Notes under the pieces: generated by a model | What the model was told of the DNA's origin: nothing | Seen by the model: the letters and a program-made list of their open reading frames with translations, nothing else | Databases searched by the model: none | Program-made: the position numbers and the translations under genes | Shown here: positions 1 to 7,022 of the stretch, one piece after another | Layout: each line of letters starts with the position of its first letter | How positions within the stretch are numbered: the stretch's first letter is position 1 | From: a virus | Taxonomy: Duplodnaviria; Caudoviricetes | Direction: 5' to 3' (one strand) | DNA length: 64,000 nt | Virus record (IMG/VR): IMGVR_UViG_3300020460_000012

Positions 1-12
1 AAGAGGGCAAAT

Positions 13-228
13 ATGGGAATGAGCAGTTGGATTTTAGATCAAGTAGATGAGTTCTACGAGATAGCACAGAAGACCATCGGGTCTTGTGAGTGCATAGAAG
101 AATTTCAAAAAGAGATGAAAGAGCATGAAGGTCTCCTAGCAGGGAGCACCGAGCTTGAATACTTATACAACGACAATGGGTATTCCGATCTTTGGAACGA
201 GTATTGGGAGAGTTTCCAAGATGCTTAA
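13..228 (+). CDS. Small acidic early protein, hypothetical
   Basis: ORF track; GAGGGC at 3-8, 4 nt before the ATG; D/E-rich with a W/Y-rich C-terminus. Confidence 0.75.
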   Translation: MGMSSWILDQVDEFYEIAQKTIGSCECIEEFQKEMKEHEGLLAGSTELEYLYNDNGYSDLWNEYWESFQDA

Positions 229-424
229 ACCAGCTTATTGCGATAGGATTGCACACGCCATTAGGGAAGAGCTTGTAAAGAGCGACCCACTAGGCATTAT
301 TGGGTTGGTTGGTCCAATTGAATGGGACCTTAACTCAGAGGGTTCATTCATGTCAACAAAGAAGACCATGGAGGTCACTGACATGAATGGTAAGACTTAC
401 ACCGTAACCATAGAGGAGAAGTAA
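221..424 (+). CDS. Hypothetical early protein (start revised to ATG 221)
   Basis: ORF track gives 155..424; ATG 221 overlaps the upstream stop and follows GGGAGAG. Confidence 0.65.
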   Translation: MLKPAYCDRIAHAIREELVKSDPLGIIGLVGPIEWDLNSEGSFMSTKKTMEVTDMNGKTYTVTIEEK

Positions 425-597
425 TGTTAGAGCTGATAGGGCTGATAGCTTTAATCTACTTGGCAGTTAAATTTTTACCAGGCATATTGGTGTTCGCACT
501 AAAGGTGCTCATAGTATTAGTAGGTATCTGGCTTATCCTGAATGTCCTTGTGTGGATGTTTGGATGGCCAAACTTTTTAATCGTTATGCCTCTTTAG
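424..597 (+). CDS. 57-aa hydrophobic membrane protein (not in ORF track)
   Basis: TAATG coupling at 424; translated by hand as MLELIGLIALIYLAVKFLPGILVFALKVLIVLVGIWLILNVLVWMFGWPNFLIVMPL. Confidence 0.7.
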   Translation: MLELIGLIALIYLAVKFLPGILVFALKVLIVLVGIWLILNVLVWMFGWPNFLIVMPL

Positions 598-628
598 GGG
601 TTGACAAATTCTTTAATCATGCTATACT
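595..628 (+). promoter_or_regulatory. Early sigma70-type promoter 1
   Basis: TAGGGG-TTGACA(601-606)-16 nt-TATACT(623-628). Confidence 0.85.
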
Positions 629-657
629 ATATGTATAGTTAAACAAAAGAGGGCAAC

Positions 658-1140
658 ATGGCAACAAGAGCAAGAATAGCACTTCAACTTAGTGAAGACA
701 AAATCATAGGATCCTATCATCATTGGGACGGATACCCTGGTGGACTAGGATACAATCTCATTGACAATTGGTATAAAGCTGACAAGGTAGAAAAGGCTAT
801 CATGTTAGGTGATGCAAGTAAATGGGGGCAGTTCATAGGAGAAAAGATCGACTTTAATGACACACAAGCAGATTCCTATGCTTATCAGAATGTTTATTAC
901 GGTCGTGACCGAGGCGAGAAAAATTGTCATCATCAGGTTTACACAAGCGAACAGGCTTATCTCAAGAACGGATTCAAGTCAGGTGAAGATTACATTTATC
1001 TAGCAAAGAACACAGGACAGAATCAGTTGACTTGGTTCTATGCGAAGTATGATATGAAGGAGTTTCTTCCTGTTGAAGGCAAAGCGATTAGAGAGCATAT
1101 AGAAATGTTGGAAATGCATTTGAACAAGGAGGCCGCATAA
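658..1140 (+). CDS. Conserved phage early protein with HWDGYP motif
   Basis: ORF track; MATR...YHHWDGYP pattern is common in uncharacterised phage proteins; GAGGGC RBS. Confidence 0.8.
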   Translation: MATRARIALQLSEDKIIGSYHHWDGYPGGLGYNLIDNWYKADKVEKAIMLGDASKWGQFIGEKIDFNDTQADSYAYQNVYYGRDRGEKNCHHQVYTSEQAYLKNGFKSGEDYIYLAKNTGQNQLTWFYAKYDMKEFLPVEGKAIREHIEMLEMHLNKEAA

Positions 1141-1661
1141 TGCCAAATTGGTGTAGCACAGATATAGAAATTATTGGCCCCACAGCTGAGATGAAGAAGC
1201 TGGCGGCTATTGTAAACTCAAACGATGATCCTGGATTCTTACAAACTATATGTCCAGGGCCCGAAGAATGGAACTATGATTGGTCCGTACAGAACTGGGG
1301 CACCAAGTGGGACATTAGTGAAGGGCATGCTGACGTAGAAGAGCTTGCGACTGCACACCCGATCCTACAGTCCAAGTTGTCTATCGCGACACAAACTGCA
1401 TGGGCACCCCCACTAGAGGCTCTCGACTACTACCTGCAGGAGAATCCTGAGTATATAGTCAAATGCTATTACTATGAGCCTGGCATGGACTTCGCAGGCA
1501 TATGGGAAGATGGCTATGACGATTGTCTCACAGATCTACACGATAAAAACATCGACTGGAACGAACCAGCCAGCCTAGCACAGAAGCTAGACGAGATGTA
1601 TGGCATCTGTGAAGAACATGCACAGTATGATGACGAAAACTTTGCCTACGAGAGTAGATAG
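1140..1661 (+). CDS. DUF1281/YubB-like (Api92-like) ferredoxin-fold protein
   Basis: MPNWC N-terminus, NWGTKW, TAWAPP and YYEPGMDFAG motifs. Confidence 0.75.
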   Translation: MPNWCSTDIEIIGPTAEMKKLAAIVNSNDDPGFLQTICPGPEEWNYDWSVQNWGTKWDISEGHADVEELATAHPILQSKLSIATQTAWAPPLEALDYYLQENPEYIVKCYYYEPGMDFAGIWEDGYDDCLTDLHDKNIDWNEPASLAQKLDEMYGICEEHAQYDDENFAYESR

Positions 1662-1692
1662 GGGTTGACAACTAGAATATTGATGCTATACT
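1659..1692 (+). promoter_or_regulatory. Early sigma70-type promoter 2
   Basis: TAGGGG-TTGACA(1665-1670)-16 nt-TATACT(1687-1692). Confidence 0.85.
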
Positions 1693-1722
1693 GTAAGTAT
1701 AGTTAAACAAAAAGAGGGCGTT

Positions 1723-1932
1723 ATGGGAATTTCAAGAGATAAAGCAATTGAGTTGGTCGAAGAAGGAATTGTCGATCCGATCCAGATGGTCATCATGTGT
1801 GTGAAATACATGAGTGAGGATGACGTCGAGGATATGCTCGATTGTAACGAACTGAGTGATCGGTTCATGGAAGAGGACGATGGCCAACCTGACTGGGAGC
1901 AGGAGTGGGCCGACTTTGGGGAGGAATACTAA
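1723..1932 (+). CDS. Small acidic early protein with DGQPDWEQEW tail
   Basis: ORF track; GAGGGC RBS at 1714. Confidence 0.8.
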   Translation: MGISRDKAIELVEEGIVDPIQMVIMCVKYMSEDDVEDMLDCNELSDRFMEEDDGQPDWEQEWADFGEEY

Positions 1933-1938
1933 GGTTAC

Positions 1939-2060
1939 GTGGTACCTACAAAGGCCCGGTCTCTGCAGGACCCTGCACAGTCGAAAGACACCGTAGAGCA
2001 GATAAGGGTAGGCTAAGGTACTAGATTAAAACAGTTGCATGCCGAGATCTAGACGCCACA
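1939..2060 (+). ncRNA. Candidate structured RNA (unclassified) in an early intergenic region
   Basis: GC-rich non-coding stretch with several stems: GTACCT/AGGTAC, CCTAC/GTAGG, TGCAG/CTGCA, GTC-GAAA-GAC, CTAGAT/ATCTAG. Confidence 0.45.
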
Positions 2061-2096
2061 TTATTTTAAAAAAACAAAAACAAGCTGGAGGGCAAA

Positions 2097-2705
2097 ATGA
2101 CTATTTCAAGAGAACAAATTAAAAAAGCATTCGTAAGTGATCCCAAGGACATAGGCGAAGAAGCATATAACAATCAGGACTGGTACCAAGAAGATGCTCA
2201 GAGAATGAGATACATCTTGGCGACCATTAATATGTCACCAGGTGATTCCTATGCTGACTTCAACGGTGAAGAAAGGCAATTAAAACTAGGTCAAGAGGAC
2301 AATAGGTTCTTTGATTGCATAGATTTTGATTATCAAGGTGGTTACGAGATCAAGGACGAAGCGAAACTGCTTGAACTGATCAACATGAGTGATGAGGATG
2401 TGGCAGAATATATTAATGTCAATGAATATGAGTGGATAGGTGATGACTACGATCATATCTCAGACTACCTATTTAAGATTATGAATGAATGGCAAGACGT
2501 TCTTGAATATGATACCGAGGACGAGGACGAGGATAGCATGACCATTACCACAAGAGAAATAGACTATGTGGTAGATTCTGAGACAGGCTTTAAGAGCGAA
2601 AACAAATATGAAGTGGCCTACAATATTCTCAACGAATATTGGGACAGTCTTCCGGATGATCACAAAGAATCAATCCACAAAAGACTGGAAGCGATAGGTG
2701 TATAA
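2097..2705 (+). CDS. Acidic hypothetical early protein
   Basis: ORF track; GGAGGGC RBS at 2087-2093. Confidence 0.8.
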   Translation: MTISREQIKKAFVSDPKDIGEEAYNNQDWYQEDAQRMRYILATINMSPGDSYADFNGEERQLKLGQEDNRFFDCIDFDYQGGYEIKDEAKLLELINMSDEDVAEYINVNEYEWIGDDYDHISDYLFKIMNEWQDVLEYDTEDEDEDSMTITTREIDYVVDSETGFKSENKYEVAYNILNEYWDSLPDDHKESIHKRLEAIGV

Positions 2706-2707
2706 TC

Positions 2708-2839
2708 ATGTATAAAATATACAATGATGAAAATATATTAGTGGCAGAGAGTGATACACTTTCTTTGTCAGTGCAAGAATTACTAGAGGGTAATGGATAT
2801 ACTATTATATTTCGTAAAAAAGGGGTTGACAAACTCTAA
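2708..2839 (+). CDS. 43-aa hypothetical protein (not in ORF track)
   Basis: MYKIYNDENILVAESDTLSLSVQELLEGNGYTIIFRKKGVDKL; fills the gap and runs into promoter 3. Confidence 0.45.
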   Translation: MYKIYNDENILVAESDTLSLSVQELLEGNGYTIIFRKKGVDKL

Positions 2840-2853
2840 ATAGGTGCTATACT
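2821..2853 (+). promoter_or_regulatory. Early sigma70-type promoter 3
   Basis: AGGGG-TTGACA(2826-2831)-16 nt-TATACT(2848-2853). Confidence 0.85.
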
Positions 2854-2891
2854 ATATGTATAGTTAGGGCAAACAGAAAAAAGAGGGCTTT

Positions 2892-3086
2892 ATGCAAATT
2901 ACTAGAACTAATCCTTTCACAAACACCGTTAACACACGTGAGCTGGATATTACTCCAGAGCAGGTGGCTGCGTATGAGGCAGGTGCTCTGCTTCAAAACG
3001 CTTTCCCAAACCTCTCAGCAGACGATCGCGAGTTTTACAAGACTGGCATCGACAACTGGGACGAGATGTTCGGAGGGGAGGAGTAG
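2892..3086 (+). CDS. Small conserved phage hypothetical protein
   Basis: ORF track; GAGGGC RBS; LLQNAFPNLSADDREF motif. Confidence 0.8.
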   Translation: MQITRTNPFTNTVNTRELDITPEQVAAYEAGALLQNAFPNLSADDREFYKTGIDNWDEMFGGEE

Positions 3087-3254
3087 ATGACTGTTCAAGA
3101 AGCATGGAGCATCGTAGGCAATCAGCCTAAGTCCGCGATCAAGAATATGGTCAAGGCGCTTGGCATGATGAAAGCTTTGAATACTCCAGAAGAGAACCGT
3201 AGACTTGAGGCAGGGAAGATCTGCTTGAAGACTACCAACCCGAGGTATTCATAA
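3087..3254 (+). CDS. 55-aa hypothetical protein (not in ORF track)
   Basis: MTVQEAWSIVGNQPKSAIKNMVKALGMMKALNTPEENRRLEAGKICLKTTNPRYS; abuts both neighbours; GGAGGAG upstream. Confidence 0.7.
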   Translation: MTVQEAWSIVGNQPKSAIKNMVKALGMMKALNTPEENRRLEAGKICLKTTNPRYS

Positions 3255-3436
3255 TGGCTATCTGTCCCGAATGTCACACCATGGACAAGAACTTCTTCGC
3301 ACCGAAGTGCCATGCTTGTAACACACCGGTTGGGTTCATCAATCAATGTATAGTGTCACTGATGTATAATGTGGTCTTCTTTGGAACACTGTATCTGATG
3401 TGGCTTTTGGTAAAATATTTATTTTGGAATTTATAA
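3254..3436 (+). CDS. Zinc-ribbon (CPEC...CHAC) protein with C-terminal transmembrane helix
   Basis: Two CxxC pairs and a hydrophobic tail; TAATG coupling. Confidence 0.7.
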   Translation: MAICPECHTMDKNFFAPKCHACNTPVGFINQCIVSLMYNVVFFGTLYLMWLLVKYLFWNL

Positions 3437-3440
3437 CATT

Positions 3441-3475
3441 TAGGGGTTGACACGTATACAGTTTGATCATATACT
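3441..3475 (+). promoter_or_regulatory. Early sigma70-type promoter 4
   Basis: TAGGGG-TTGACA(3447-3452)-17 nt-TATACT(3470-3475). Confidence 0.85.
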
Positions 3476-3515
3476 GTATATAACAATTAAGCAATGACAA
3501 CTGAAAGAGGGCAAT

Positions 3516-4520
3516 ATGTCAAATATTAAATTACTTGAAGGTAGCTATAAGATCCGCGGCAAGGAAGTAGATCTTACAGGTATGGTCTTTCCACTAGTAG
3601 AAGGCTACAAGGTTGGTACCCAGGGCGGATACGTAACCGTTGATGGATCAGCAGTAGCTGGCTTTCCAGATCGAAACATCAAGATCAAAGTAAGCGGTCC
3701 GAACTGCTTCGATCAGAGCACCACTGCAAAGGTCACCAAGCGAGAAGAGACAGACGAAGAGACGATTGAAAGACTTCGTGAGCGTTTCGACATGCTTGAA
3801 GATATGACCCGTGCAACTAAGAGAGGCGATGTGCGAGCAATGATCGTAAGTGGCCCTCCAGGTGTTGGTAAGTCACATGGTGTTGAAAAAGTACTAGGCA
3901 ACCATGAACTGATTGCTCAGCTAGGCAACAAGCCTGCTAAGTATGAAGTGGTCAAGGGTGCTATGTCAGCTATAGGACTCTACTGCAAATTGTACAAACA
4001 CGCAGACAAAGATAACGTGCTAGTGTTTGACGATTGTGATAGTGTGTTCAGCGATGAGCTTTCATTGAACATCTTGAAGGCCGCCCTAGACTCGAAGAGG
4101 ACTAGAAAGATTTGTTGGAACACAGACAGTTTCAAATTACGAAATGAAGGTGTGCCAGACAGCTTTGACTTTAAAGGCTCAGCTATCTTTATCACCAACA
4201 TCAAGTTTGATAACGTTAAGAGCAAGAAGATGAGGGACCATTTAGAAGCTCTTGAGTCACGTTGTCACTACATTGATCTGACTATTGATACGGACAGAGA
4301 GAAGATGTTACGTATTAAACAGATCACCAAAGACGGCATGCTAAATGACTATCAGTTGGGCGAGCATGTCGAGAACGATATTGTCGACTTTATGGAAGCG
4401 AACAAAAACAAGCTCAGGGAATTAAGCTTGCGAACTGTTCTTAAAGTCGCAGACTTAGCCAAAGCATTTCCCGACAGATGGGAAGCGATGGCTGAGAACA
4501 CGGTAATGCGTCGAGCTTAG
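3516..4520 (+). CDS. Phage AAA+-type P-loop ATPase
   Basis: Walker A GPPGVGKS, Walker B VLVFDDCD, sensor FITN, arginine finger ALESR. Confidence 0.85.
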   Translation: MSNIKLLEGSYKIRGKEVDLTGMVFPLVEGYKVGTQGGYVTVDGSAVAGFPDRNIKIKVSGPNCFDQSTTAKVTKREETDEETIERLRERFDMLEDMTRATKRGDVRAMIVSGPPGVGKSHGVEKVLGNHELIAQLGNKPAKYEVVKGAMSAIGLYCKLYKHADKDNVLVFDDCDSVFSDELSLNILKAALDSKRTRKICWNTDSFKLRNEGVPDSFDFKGSAIFITNIKFDNVKSKKMRDHLEALESRCHYIDLTIDTDREKMLRIKQITKDGMLNDYQLGEHVENDIVDFMEANKNKLRELSLRTVLKVADLAKAFPDRWEAMAENTVMRRA

Positions 4521-4537
4521 AGCTCCGCCACCGTGTT

Positions 4538-4665
4538 CATGTACCAGCGTCCGGGGTGCCCTCCCCCAGCTGGTACTACATGTCGGAAGTTTCAGCAAGC
4601 CCTCACGCTGGCTCCGACGAATAGAGCCCTGCATAGTGTGCCCTCGCTATGCGGGGCTCGACCTT
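4538..4665 (+). ncRNA. Candidate three-hairpin sRNA with GCCCUC loops, antisense to the early-gene GAGGGC RBS
   Basis: Three consecutive stem-loops (4541-4576, 4582-4618, 4624-4659) with loops UGCCCUC, AAGCCCUCAC and GUGCCCUC; U-G pairs favour the + strand; CUUUU follows. Confidence 0.7.
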
Positions 4666-4711
4666 TTAGACTTATCCACAGGGCAAAAATCCACATAAAA
4701 TAATGGTAAAT

Positions 4712-4746
4712 TAGGGGTTGACAGATCTGGATTCAGAACATATACT
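4712..4746 (+). promoter_or_regulatory. Early sigma70-type promoter 5
   Basis: TAGGGG-TTGACA(4718-4723)-17 nt-TATACT(4741-4746). Confidence 0.85.
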
Positions 4747-4776
4747 GTATATAACAGTTAGGAAATAGAGGGCATT

Positions 4777-5199
4777 ATGAAAAAGATATTAATTACTACC
4801 GCACTAATAGCAAGTTTAGGTCTTGCTACAACTCCAGTTAAAGCTGACACAGACGACTTTATCAAAGTCATAGGCGCTGTGATTATATTAGATCAGCTTT
4901 TCAACAAAAACGATCGTAGACACAACGGCGGCTATCATCCACAGAACGGTGGCTACTACCCCGGCGGTATCTACGATGACAGAGGTTACGATCACAACCG
5001 TAGGGTTTGTAACGGTAACCTAGGCTGTACTCCATATGATAACAATCCTTGGAACAATCCTAGAAAGCATGGTTATGCTAGAGGATATGACACAGGTGAG
5101 ATCTGTGGACAAAGAACAGAGCATTACAGAAACTATACAGAGACTCTTCACTTAGACTGTAATGGTAATGTTTTATTTGTAACTAGACACGCCAAGTAA
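4777..5199 (+). CDS. Secreted/periplasmic G-Y-N-rich protein
   Basis: Signal-peptide-like N-terminus (MKKILITTAL...VKA); NGGY repeats; GAGGGC RBS. Confidence 0.75.
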   Translation: MKKILITTALIASLGLATTPVKADTDDFIKVIGAVIILDQLFNKNDRRHNGGYHPQNGGYYPGGIYDDRGYDHNRRVCNGNLGCTPYDNNPWNNPRKHGYARGYDTGEICGQRTEHYRNYTETLHLDCNGNVLFVTRHAK

Positions 5200-5210
5200 G
5201 GAGGGCACTT

Positions 5211-5498
5211 ATGAAAGCACATCAAGCACAATATATCCTTGAGCAGTTCGTTGACTCAACCAATAGATGGAATAGCATATTTGGCAAAGAGCCTATGACA
5301 TTTCCTCTAAGCCAACAGAACGCAAACAGTCTTATGGACAAGCTTGCAGGAGAGCTATCACCAGAGAACCTACACTGTGATGGTGAGATATCACATGCAC
5401 AGGCTCAACGTAAGTTCCGTGAGCTTAACACTATCAAGAAAGCACTAGAAACCTACTGCTTGAACAATTGGCTTGATACCCCTGAGTGCGTATATTAG
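5211..5498 (+). CDS. Conserved phage hypothetical early protein
   Basis: ORF track; LSPENLHCDGEIS motif; GGAGGGC RBS. Confidence 0.8.
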   Translation: MKAHQAQYILEQFVDSTNRWNSIFGKEPMTFPLSQQNANSLMDKLAGELSPENLHCDGEISHAQAQRKFRELNTIKKALETYCLNNWLDTPECVY

Positions 5499-5529
5499 GG
5501 GTTGACAAGACTGCAATTGATGTTATTAT
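5496..5529 (+). promoter_or_regulatory. Early sigma70-type promoter 6
   Basis: TAGGGG-TTGACA(5502-5507)-16 nt-TATTAT(5524-5529). Confidence 0.8.
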
Positions 5530-5564
5530 AGTAGAGTAAGTTAAACAAAACAAGCGAGGGCAAT

Positions 5565-5897
5565 ATGAACTACACTGTACAAGAACTTAAAGACCTGTTA
5601 GAAGATGCTAAACTAGCGGCTTACACTGCTGGCATTGAGCACCTAGACACATATGGTGAGCATGCTTACTGTGGCTTTGCTTGGGTAGATATATTTGGTG
5701 TTAAAGGCAACACCAAGCTAGGCCGTGCTATGAAAGCGGCAGGCTATGAGAAGGACTACAAAGGTGCTTACTCAATATGGAACCCAAGTGGCTTAGGTAC
5801 GCAGTGCATGAGCACTAAAGAAGCTGGTGCTAGAGCGGCGGCGCAAGTGTTTAAGGACGCAGGCTTTACAGCTTACGCAGGCAGTCGACCAGACTAG
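5565..5897 (+). CDS. Conserved phage protein with CGFAWV motif
   Basis: ORF track; CGFAWV...Q.M..KE.GA.A motif; GAGGGC RBS. Confidence 0.8.
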   Translation: MNYTVQELKDLLEDAKLAAYTAGIEHLDTYGEHAYCGFAWVDIFGVKGNTKLGRAMKAAGYEKDYKGAYSIWNPSGLGTQCMSTKEAGARAAAQVFKDAGFTAYAGSRPD

Positions 5898-5917
5898 GTC
5901 GCAACCAAACTGCCAGC

Positions 5918-5945
5918 AACCCCGGCTTAGGTCGGGGTTTTTTTT
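5918..5945 (+). terminator. Rho-independent terminator ending the early region
   Basis: AACCCCGGC-TTAG-GTCGGGGTT stem-loop followed by a T run. Confidence 0.85.
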
Positions 5946-6123
5946 GAAAAAATTTTCTCGGGGGGTCGGGGTTATATACGACAAATTTGCAACTGCCCGC
6001 ACAAGTGCTTAATGACCGCTTTTTAAAAATTGGGTGATGCAAAATCACCACCTCGATTCTGTAAGTACTTGCCTACAATTTTTTACGCGACTCGATTTTT
6101 TTCACACAGAACCCATTTCGGCC

Positions 6124-6131
6124 TATAAATA
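6124..6131 (+). promoter_or_regulatory. T4-type late promoter TATAAATA
   Basis: Exact TATAAATA 4 nt upstream of ATG 6136. Confidence 0.7.
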
Positions 6132-6135
6132 CACT

Positions 6136-6333
6136 ATGCTAGGAAATGATCTTAAAATAGCAGGACTACAAGCAGTTATAGTGCTAGTACCAACCTACAC
6201 AGTCGCATATCTAACTGAGCAAATGGTATACACTATTCCCATGCTAGCGGCCAGTAGTTTTGTAGCTGCCGCACTACGTCCTAATACTAGTATCAAAGTA
6301 GATGATGCCAGCAAAGACGGTGGTAAGGAATAA
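6136..6333 (+). CDS. 65-aa two-TM membrane protein (start revised from 6034)
   Basis: MLGNDLKIAGLQAVIVLVPTYTVAYLTEQMVYTIPMLAASSFVAAAL...; directly follows a late promoter. Confidence 0.65.
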   Translation: MLGNDLKIAGLQAVIVLVPTYTVAYLTEQMVYTIPMLAASSFVAAALRPNTSIKVDDASKDGGKE

Positions 6334-6488
6334 CTTTTTACTATGCAAAAAACAACCCCTCTACACTGTGAACACCAGTGTGTTACACACCAAAAAAGGT
6401 TAAATAACACTGTATACACACGTAGATTCACAACAATTCAATCCAACTGCGGTTTCGTCAATAAGCGTATAGCAGACTCACATCTCGT

Positions 6489-6737
6489 GTGTATACTCTA
6501 ATGTATCGTGTCAAACTAATTTACAGTACTAGGCCAAGAATAGAACGCTTCATACGAGACACTCGCTATGAGGATGTGCTTACCCAAACTGCTTGTACCA
6601 AACTATTACTTAATCACAACATACACACCACACAGCCAGATCACTGTACTATTGAGTTTGAGTCAGATCGCGACCGCATGTTGGCCATGCTTAAACTGTC
6701 AGAATCTACACTCTACAAAGCAAGGTTAGTAGATTAA
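6489..6737 (+). CDS. Hypothetical protein (ATG 6501 is an alternative start)
   Basis: ORF track. Confidence 0.5.
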   Translation: MYTLMYRVKLIYSTRPRIERFIRDTRYEDVLTQTACTKLLLNHNIHTTQPDHCTIEFESDRDRMLAMLKLSESTLYKARLVD

Positions 6738-7022
6738 GAACCATCTTTGTTCTAATCAGCTTCTAAGGCCAATTGCAACGCTATGCAATACATCTGTCGT
6801 GGTGGTAGCACAGTTTTAGAACCTTTATGTGTGTTCTAGTATGTGTGTACACCTAGCAGATTTTTTGCACTAGTAAACGCTAAATTTTGTGCAAAAAGCG
6901 TTTACCGCTTCGCGGCAGGTAGTGCGTACCGCAGGCGGCTTCGCCGTAGTAGTTGCTAAATAGTTGCACTTGTTGACCGTGAGGGCTGACAAGCTATATC
7001 TCAAACACTGGAGAAACAACAA

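Follow-up and report, generated by a model that had tools for sequence, protein, structure and literature searches.

The window analysed here, that is, the whole stretch of 64,000 nucleotides of IMG/VR record IMGVR_UViG_3300020460_000012, belongs to a giant T4-like myophage of marine origin that has not been cultured and that encodes a tail sheath protein of 1091 aa and a DnaB-type helicase. Positions 1-7000 make up an early block on the + strand, in which an AAA-type ATPase gene of unknown function is followed by an array of four hairpins (window 4496-4665, + strand) overlapping the end of the gene. Three of these hairpins display the hexamer GCCCUC in their loops, which are the exact complement of GAGGGC, a ribosome-binding site (RBS) motif specific to the early genes. 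The element is a conserved, structured, + strand RNA, and its loops are proposed here, from sequence comparisons, to pair with those sites and thus to lower early-gene translation. The DNA of the window is present in many marine metagenomes and its relatives have genomes of up to 262-358 kb. Searches of INPHARED for near and distant nucleotide relatives of the window recovered no cultured phage, and the ATPase protein shares at most 46% identity with cultured-phage proteins.

The region 4521-4680 of the + strand folds with a predicted energy of -66.6 kcal/mol (z = -5.2), which none of 200 shuffled versions equalled, compared with z = -1.4 for the - strand; when the hairpin at the end of the coding sequence (CDS) is included (4490-4675), the + strand reaches -90.2 kcal/mol (z = -7.15). 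A preliminary description of this DNA had placed three hairpins after the ATPase stop codon and favoured a + strand RNA for them. The stems, loops and coordinates that it gave for these three (hairpins 1-3, Table 1) were all correct and the strand is borne out by the folds and by strand-specific G.U pairs, but it missed hairpin 0, which starts inside the ATPase CDS and encloses its stop codon. In the window hairpin 0 lacks GCCCUC; a terminating ribosome would need to unfold it. The most accessible loop is that of hairpin 2, where the GCCCUC stretch has an unpaired probability of 0.84. Behind hairpin 3 come GACC and then only UUUU (4664-4667), a place at which a terminator scan makes no call. 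No promoter-like site was found on the + strand at 4300-4540, within the 3' end of the ATPase gene, which fits the origin from a 3' untranslated region (UTR) put forward in the preliminary description. At gathering thresholds Rfam 15, with its C4 antisense RNA, cuckoo/CcsR, CsrB/RsmZ and tRNA-like families, gave no family in the whole window, and the segment 4440-4720 gave none at E <= 10. The + strand of the window holds only four GCCCTC sites, three of them being the array loops. The fourth (3853-3858) encodes Walker A codons of the ATPase (GPPGVGK); it is kept in all relatives for coding reasons and lies outside the element.

The sequence GAGGGC-N3-4-ATG occurs nine times in the window, the number given in the preliminary description, all on the + strand and within 1-5567; 0.34 occurrences are expected, and none of 100 shuffles reached nine. 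The bare hexamer is not enriched window-wide (14 copies against 9.7 expected), what is non-random being its placement at start codons and, as complement, in the loops. The motif stands at a fixed 3-4 nt from the ATG but at 20-31 nt from the -10 box, and is found as well ahead of two genes inside operons (2088 and 5201), from which it follows that it is a translation-start signal and not a part of the promoter. The RBSs of middle and late genes are of the ordinary GGAG or GGAGG kind, indicating that the anti-Shine-Dalgarno (anti-SD) sequence of the host is canonical and leaving the GC(A) extension of the early motif unexplained by pairing to 16S rRNA. A logo of 221 unique start sites from the clade described below reads aaaaa-G(76%)-AGGGC-A(74%)-A, usually 3 nt before the ATG, and this early RBS, (G/A)AGGGCA, is used only by the clade that carries the array. 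Moreover, on whole contigs GAGGGCA clusters in a single early block of 8-14 kb containing the array (for instance 12/13, 11/15 and 15/17 sites), compared with 0-3 sites for controls with the reversed pattern.

The loops match these sites beyond the common hexamer. Every correspondence between loop variants and target variants listed in the preliminary description is present, namely GAGGGCUU at 2883, GAGGGCAC at 5201, CGAGGGCA at 5555 and GGAGGGCA at 2087 and 5200, and the loop logo, U(57%)/A(32%)-GCCCUC, mirrors that of the start sites. A typical 7-bp match, UGCCCUC:GAGGGCA, is predicted to yield -12.0 kcal/mol, compared with -6.3 kcal/mol for the same site with the 16S tail. Pairing was scanned with correction for accessibility, since plain duplexfold without it gave meaningless long duplexes with interior loops. 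In the corrected scan, eight motif-bearing early start regions reached -7.6 to -10.2 kcal/mol, all of them through the loops and mostly through loop 2, and predicted pairing of -6 kcal/mol or better was obtained in the window for 9/18 early start regions versus 6/75 others.

A comparison set of about 200 IMG/VR loci (L001-L207) was fetched by homology to the ATPase. One clade of the ATPase tree, with 61 unique lineages and 99% SH-like local support, carries the array in every member, in the form of two to six hairpins with unrelated stems and GCCCUC loops, so that the covarying stems with invariant loops that the preliminary description had proposed to seek behind the ATPase of related phages were found in 61 lineages. 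Among the first 36 unique loci, all 81 GCCCUC copies downstream of the ATPase lie in hairpin loops, 80 of them with at least four of the six nucleotides unpaired. G.U accounts for 61 of the 761 stem pairs (8%), pairs that would be A-C mismatches on the other strand, and the RNA is thereby assigned to the + strand. When 24 terminator-type hairpins were aligned without gaps, 82.7% of the cells were paired, compared with 39-47% in slid controls; 12 of the 14 stem pairs showed double changes, and the covariation score was 0.72 against 0.11-0.26. The block UGUGCCCUCG is invariant across the 24, including an invariant U.G closing pair. Similar results were obtained for hairpin 0, which encloses the stop codon with 6 bp or more (as a rule 12-20) in 35 of 36 unique loci, with 32 different 5' arms; it is kept with compensatory changes, and its loop in most relatives combines the stop codon with GCCCUC. 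The array adjoins and overlaps the end of the ATPase CDS in all lineages, an arrangement of the 3'-UTR type. Individual modules recur as well: 'GGGU GCCCUC CC' of hairpin 1 is also found in L001, L025, L028, L103 and L120, and 'A GCCCUC AC-GCU' of hairpin 2 is widespread among relatives. The L038 lineage, a singleton in IMG/VR, has variant C-rich loops. The 16-mer GGATGTGCCCTCGTCC matched clade arrays in 25 of 35 cases in IMG/VR, the others being coding sequence without an array, mostly of high-GC viruses, and in bacterial genomes it gave only scattered matches, mostly high-GC and consistent with chance in that much DNA.

Array and motif share one distribution. They occur together in 61 of the 61 clade lineages, and 34 outgroup lineages have neither the array nor GAGGGC start sites. 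Within the clade the conserved targets are the RBS of the ATPase itself (45/59 lineages) and that of the family of gene 658-1140 (15/18). Two further aspects went beyond the preliminary description. The array of most relatives ends in a plain intrinsic terminator, 5-8 U standing directly behind the last hairpin, compared with the weak U tract of the window, and GCCCUC-loop hairpins also stand behind tRNA clusters of relatives. About 13 lineages have, behind the last tRNA of their early Met/Arg/Leu cluster, a long terminator hairpin whose apical loop contains GCCCUC (Table 1) and which could be a copy of the array loop derived from the tRNA trailer; ARAGORN found no tRNA or tmRNA in the 64-kb window. 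These hairpins indicate that the functional unit is a single GCCCUC-loop hairpin at the 3' end of an early transcript and not the ATPase array alone.

Table 1. Features of the early block of the window, with GCCCUC hairpins behind tRNA clusters of related loci (last five rows).
Feature	Position	Strand	Remarks
GAGGGC RBS	3..8	+	ATG at 13
GAGGGC RBS of gene 658-1140	649..654	+	motif kept in 15/18 homologues, including divergent L037
GAGGGC RBS of gene 1723-1932	1714..1719	+	
GGAGGGCA RBS of gene 2097-2705	2088..2093	+	operon-internal gene, not promoter-proximal
GAGGGCUU RBS of gene 2892-3086	2883..2888	+	
Early promoter of ATPase unit, sigma-70-type, TTGACA-17-TATACT	3447..3475	+	11/12 consensus
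GAGGGC RBS of ATPase gene	3507..3512	+	possible cis target; (G)AGGGC in 45/59 relatives
AAA-type ATPase gene, 334 aa, phrog_1250	3516..4520	+	function unknown; own promoter; 3' end and 3' UTR bear the element
Hairpin 0	4496..4538	+	5' arm formed by the last ATPase codons (~24 nt of CDS); triloop is the stop codon, 4518-4520
Hairpin 1, stem GUACCAGC/GCUGGUAC plus GGGG/CCCC	4541..4576	+	loop UGCCCU(C), 4557-4563
Hairpin 2, stem GUCGGA/UCCGAC plus CAGC/GCUG	4582..4618	+	10-nt loop AAGCCCUCAC, 4597-4606
Hairpin 3, 15 bp	4624-4659 (4624..4667 with U tract)	+	GUGCCCUC, 4638-4645, within invariant UGUGCCCUCG, 4637-4646
Early promoter of next gene, TTGACA-17-TATACT	4718..4746	+	element boundary
GAGGGCAU RBS of gene 4777-5199	4768..4773	+	gene directly downstream of the element
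GGAGGGCAC RBS of gene 5211-5498	5201..5206	+	internal gene
CGAGGGCA RBS of gene 5565-5897	5556..5561	+	
tRNA-trailer GCCCUC hairpin	L007:2328-2400		
tRNA-trailer GCCCUC hairpin	L090:792-860		
tRNA-trailer GCCCUC hairpin	L021:2848-2915		
tRNA-trailer GCCCUC hairpin	L089:1325-1400		
tRNA-trailer GCCCUC hairpin	L013:2260-2310		

The array and its targets are embedded in a repetitive set of early units. Six near-consensus sigma-70 promoters (11/12 consensus matches) lie on the + strand within 1-5600, at 601, 1665, 2826, 3447, 4718 and 5502, with one to three small genes behind each; their leaders are shared, and the promoter-leader units are near-identical repeats. The -10 boxes of early promoters fall within short palindromes, TATAC-N5-GTATA or ATATAC-T-GTATAT (window 620-640, 1684-1704, 2845-2865 and 4738-4753), which could be operators for an early repressor acting on DNA, or merely mirrored -10 elements. 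Some leaders contain a second copy of the motif: AGGGCAAAC occurs at 2866-2874 in the leader of gene 2892-3086, and likewise in all leaders of L035 and in leaders of L001 and L002, near the predicted 5' end of the leader, so that messages of some lineages have two potential loop-binding sites. At the border of the early block, window 6978-6987 reads CGTGAGGGCT, a 10-nt complement of loop 2 (AGCCCUCACG) that has no start codon after it and sits in the spacer of a weak promoter-like site. In the locus L094, a gene on the minus strand for a 201-aa GIY-YIG-like protein, probably a homing endonuclease (L094:2189-2794), is found exactly between the ATPase stop codon and the array, where a duplicated copy of the ATPase 3' end leaves hairpin 0 intact.

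The structure of the element, its strand, the conservation of its loops on covarying stems, their complementarity to the motif, the restriction of the motif to early starts and the distribution that both share in phylogeny and genome are thus solidly established. On this basis we somewhat favour the explanation that loop-to-RBS pairing lowers the translation of early genes by means of a 3'-UTR-derived regulatory RNA. The conserved array would be formed by the end of the ATPase transcript (~4496-4667, + strand), and its single-stranded (U)GCCCUC loops would pair with the clade-specific (G/A)AGGGC(A) located 3-4 nt upstream of early start codons. The GC-rich array might outlive the body of the messenger, either as a 3' UTR or as a processed fragment, and its pre-formed loops would establish GC-rich loop-to-linear contacts of 6-9 bp covering the Shine-Dalgarno (SD) region. 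Such contacts would reduce 30S binding on early messages, including the ATPase message that bears the array, and the outcome would be negative feedback together with a shut-down of early-protein synthesis. The preliminary description had seen here a timer for early-gene shut-off: its structured RNA, now with known conservation, and the exact RBS complement with a single shared distribution have held, and the remainder, that is, accumulation of a discrete RNA of ~120 nt, pairing inside the cell, repression as its sign, action in trans and a role in timing, is what we infer from them. A more ambitious version, in which the early regulon of this widespread clade follows a translation code of its own and a cognate master RNA, formed by the ATPase arrays and, in some lineages, by tRNA-trailer hairpins, titrates (G/A)AGGGCA sites in trans to give a protein-free, self-timed shut-off of the early class, is conceivable and is put forward tentatively, as a possibility that we ourselves doubt more than we believe.

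A number of observations weigh against such pairing. Array and motif arose once, in the single well-supported clade, so that their co-occurrence represents one evolutionary event with zero independent contrasts and no statistical power. In the same way, the loop core is invariant, and since it never varies a compensatory change of loop and RBS cannot be seen. On the RBS flanks of a given genome, its own loops and the loops of other genomes gave 7.06 and 7.10 bp of contiguous pairing, respectively (p = 0.76); the one suggestive case of co-adaptation is L098, with mostly AAGGGCA sites and a terminator loop reading AUGCCCUUA. Moreover, U hardly ever follows GCCCUC (1%), though the partner base that the RBS most often offers is A, which argues that a longer duplex has not been selected. 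L037 and L081 retain GCCCUC/GCCCCUC loops, and UAGGAGA stands before most of their early genes; in L037 a single gene, the homologue of window gene 658-1140, keeps GAGGGCACA. This pattern is compatible with a reduced target set and equally with loops whose function has nothing to do with the RBS. In addition, an early promoter would have to supply an RNA that outlasts or outnumbers many strongly transcribed targets. Finally, recombination of promoter-leader cassettes, as in the PeSL of T4-type phages (PMC4122927), could in part be what keeps GAGGGC. The early genes of L037 and L081 (~800-6700) have another leader cassette, consisting of a hairpin GAGCGAACAGCUC and then ACUCC...UAGGAGA, in which CUCC could, judging from the sequence, mask GGAG in cis.

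Public RNA data bear on this reading as well. Contigs of four marine metatranscriptomes cover the ATPase and gene 4777-5199 and not 4540-4780, a gap from which abundance cannot be read. Six marine RNA runs from two studies contain 45-65% of the 31-mers of 4490-4700, and these runs differ from the six that match the 2-kb stretch. From the absence of the hairpin-region runs in the latter list it follows that the hairpin region would dominate an assembly of the locus there, a suggestive result that is compatible with a stable fragment and also with DNA carry-over.

Several of these difficulties would be resolved if the GCCCUC loops were sites for a sequence-specific RNA-binding protein, of phage or host, acting at the 3' ends of early transcripts in termination or antitermination, processing, stabilisation or sequestration, with the RBS complementarity being secondary or coincidental. 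The 10-nt invariant block with its U.G closing pair is typical of protein-recognised hairpins, and semi-conserved apical modules are seen (GGA-N2-3-GCCCUC-R-UCC, AGUGU-GCCCUC-GCU and A-GCCCUC-AC-GCU). The loops that persist in L037 and L081 with few matching RBSs, the negative test for co-adaptation of loops and RBS flanks and the avoidance of U would all be expected, and the terminators behind the tRNA clusters of ~13 relatives fit a protein recognising early terminators as well as they fit stable anti-RBS hairpins released from abundant precursors. Nevertheless, an exact complement of 6-7 nt to a private RBS would arise by chance in about 1 in 500 cases or less with offsets (a rough estimate, not computed), the GC(A)/(U)GC match goes beyond ordinary SD logic, the two motifs appear together in the phylogeny and in the genome, and the early genes yielded no candidate for an RNA-binding protein, which leads us to regard a protein-binding role of this kind as unlikely, though it deserves attention. 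A purely cis role is in our view more improbable still. It would have the array stabilise and terminate the ATPase messenger, with loops pairing intramolecularly to the ATPase RBS (circularisation, autoregulation) or, on read-through, to the RBS of the next gene (insulation), and neither a trans-acting small RNA nor regulon-wide control would be involved. The array is indeed always fused to the ATPase 3' end, hairpin 0 overlapping the CDS, and a copy of that end stays with it despite the homing-endonuclease insertion; the RBS of the ATPase carries the motif in 76% of lineages, the weak U tract makes read-through plausible into gene 4777, whose GAGGGCAU RBS lies 125 nt downstream, and an internal promoter that could drive a separate RNA was not found. 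On the other hand, two to six loops per array exceed the need of one cis target, arrays remain where the ATPase RBS lacks the motif (14/59), the motif stands before dozens of other early genes per genome, and the GCCCUC-loop hairpins behind tRNA genes follow genes that have no RBS.

A feature at the DNA level, either a recombination cassette of promoter and stem-loop like PeSL or a protein site on double-stranded DNA in both orientations, was also considered. In the T4-type PeSL (PMC4122927), too, a stem-loop is followed by an early sigma-70 promoter, an SD and an ATG, and the near-identical repetition of the promoter-leader units points in the same direction. PeSL stems are conserved, whereas here the stems diverge and covary around fixed loops; the G.U pairs, one of them invariant, fit a single RNA strand; the motif follows the ATG and not the promoter, also before internal genes; and the array is single-copy per early block searched. 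Covarying stems and strand-specific G.U pairs largely exclude this reading, to which we assign a very small probability. Other candidates were rejected on similar grounds: an RNA from the minus strand is ruled out by the poor fold of that strand and by the G.U pairs; a sponge of the CsrB/RsmZ (CsrA-type) class does not agree with loops reading GCCCUC, the opposite strand offering GAGGGC without GGA and folding poorly; a tandem-repeat or ToxI-like antitoxin is at odds with the unrelated stems; a PeSL recombination site as the full explanation, with stems that are not conserved; and a mobile REP/MITE element, with a single copy.

The anti-RBS reading would matter because early shut-off in virulent phages is known mainly from proteins, such as RegA, RegB and Alc of T4, and the known anti-RBS RNAs of phages, P1 c4 and P22 sar, act on single genes of temperate phages. 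If correct, it would give a lytic phage a new means of scheduling its expression, through an RNA matched to a regulon-wide private RBS signature, and a large and well-defined family would be added to the few regulatory RNAs known from environmental phages. So compact a system, with an RNA of 170 nt and targets of 7 nt, could become an orthogonal translational switch. Even with protein-binding loops, the array would be a structured RNA that is new, conserved and strongly supported by covariation.

The closest analogues of the array are the c4 RNA, the RNAs of the RNAIII/cuckoo type and PeSL, and it is a member of none of them. The c4 antisense RNA of P1/P7, to which the CI RNA of P4 is related, is a phage-encoded, structured and processed RNA, located in the transcription unit of its target, whose loops pair over the RBS and block translation (PMC12197685). 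The likeness lies in a phage-encoded structured RNA with loop sequences complementary to the RBS region, pairing being predicted in our case from sequence. Unlike the array, c4 is located upstream of its target and serves the immunity of temperate phages through a single operon (icd-ant); here two to six loops of the same sequence are found at a 3' end, in a giant T4-like phage of virulent type with the motif on many early genes, and without a match in Rfam. The 3' domain of Staphylococcus aureus RNAIII, RsaE/RoxS and the alphaproteobacterial cuckoo/CcsR RNAs use several hairpins with C-rich loops that pair with the G-rich SDs of multiple messengers. In this line, the array also presents unrelated stems each showing one C-rich loop, with at least two hairpins sharing a single-stranded loop that is complementary to the SD region of several messengers. 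Those RNAs are cellular regulators with UCCC or CCUCCUCCC loops directed to ordinary SDs, whereas the phage element has a GCCCUC loop, faced by a private SD variant that only a single phage regulon uses, and, again, no Rfam match.

PeSL cassettes of T4-type phages equip each small gene of early or hyperplastic regions with its own stem-loop and near-consensus sigma-70 promoter and with a shared SD (PMC4122927). The same layout is found here, with the promoter 4718-4746 behind the hairpins and six near-consensus promoters with shared leaders in 1-5600. PeSL stems are nevertheless conserved (GN-loop-CN and similar), repeated before many genes and read as recombination sites, in contrast to one array per early block searched, in which the stems vary and the loop, complementary to the shared SD, is fixed. 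With regard to early shut-off itself, T4 has RegB, which cleaves GGAG within early SDs, and RegA, which binds to the start regions of early messages. In both of these cases, as would be the case for the array, a phage factor silences early messages by means of a distinctive feature of their translation starts; the effectors of T4 are proteins, whereas the candidate effector here is an RNA and the signature that it would read is GAGGGC.

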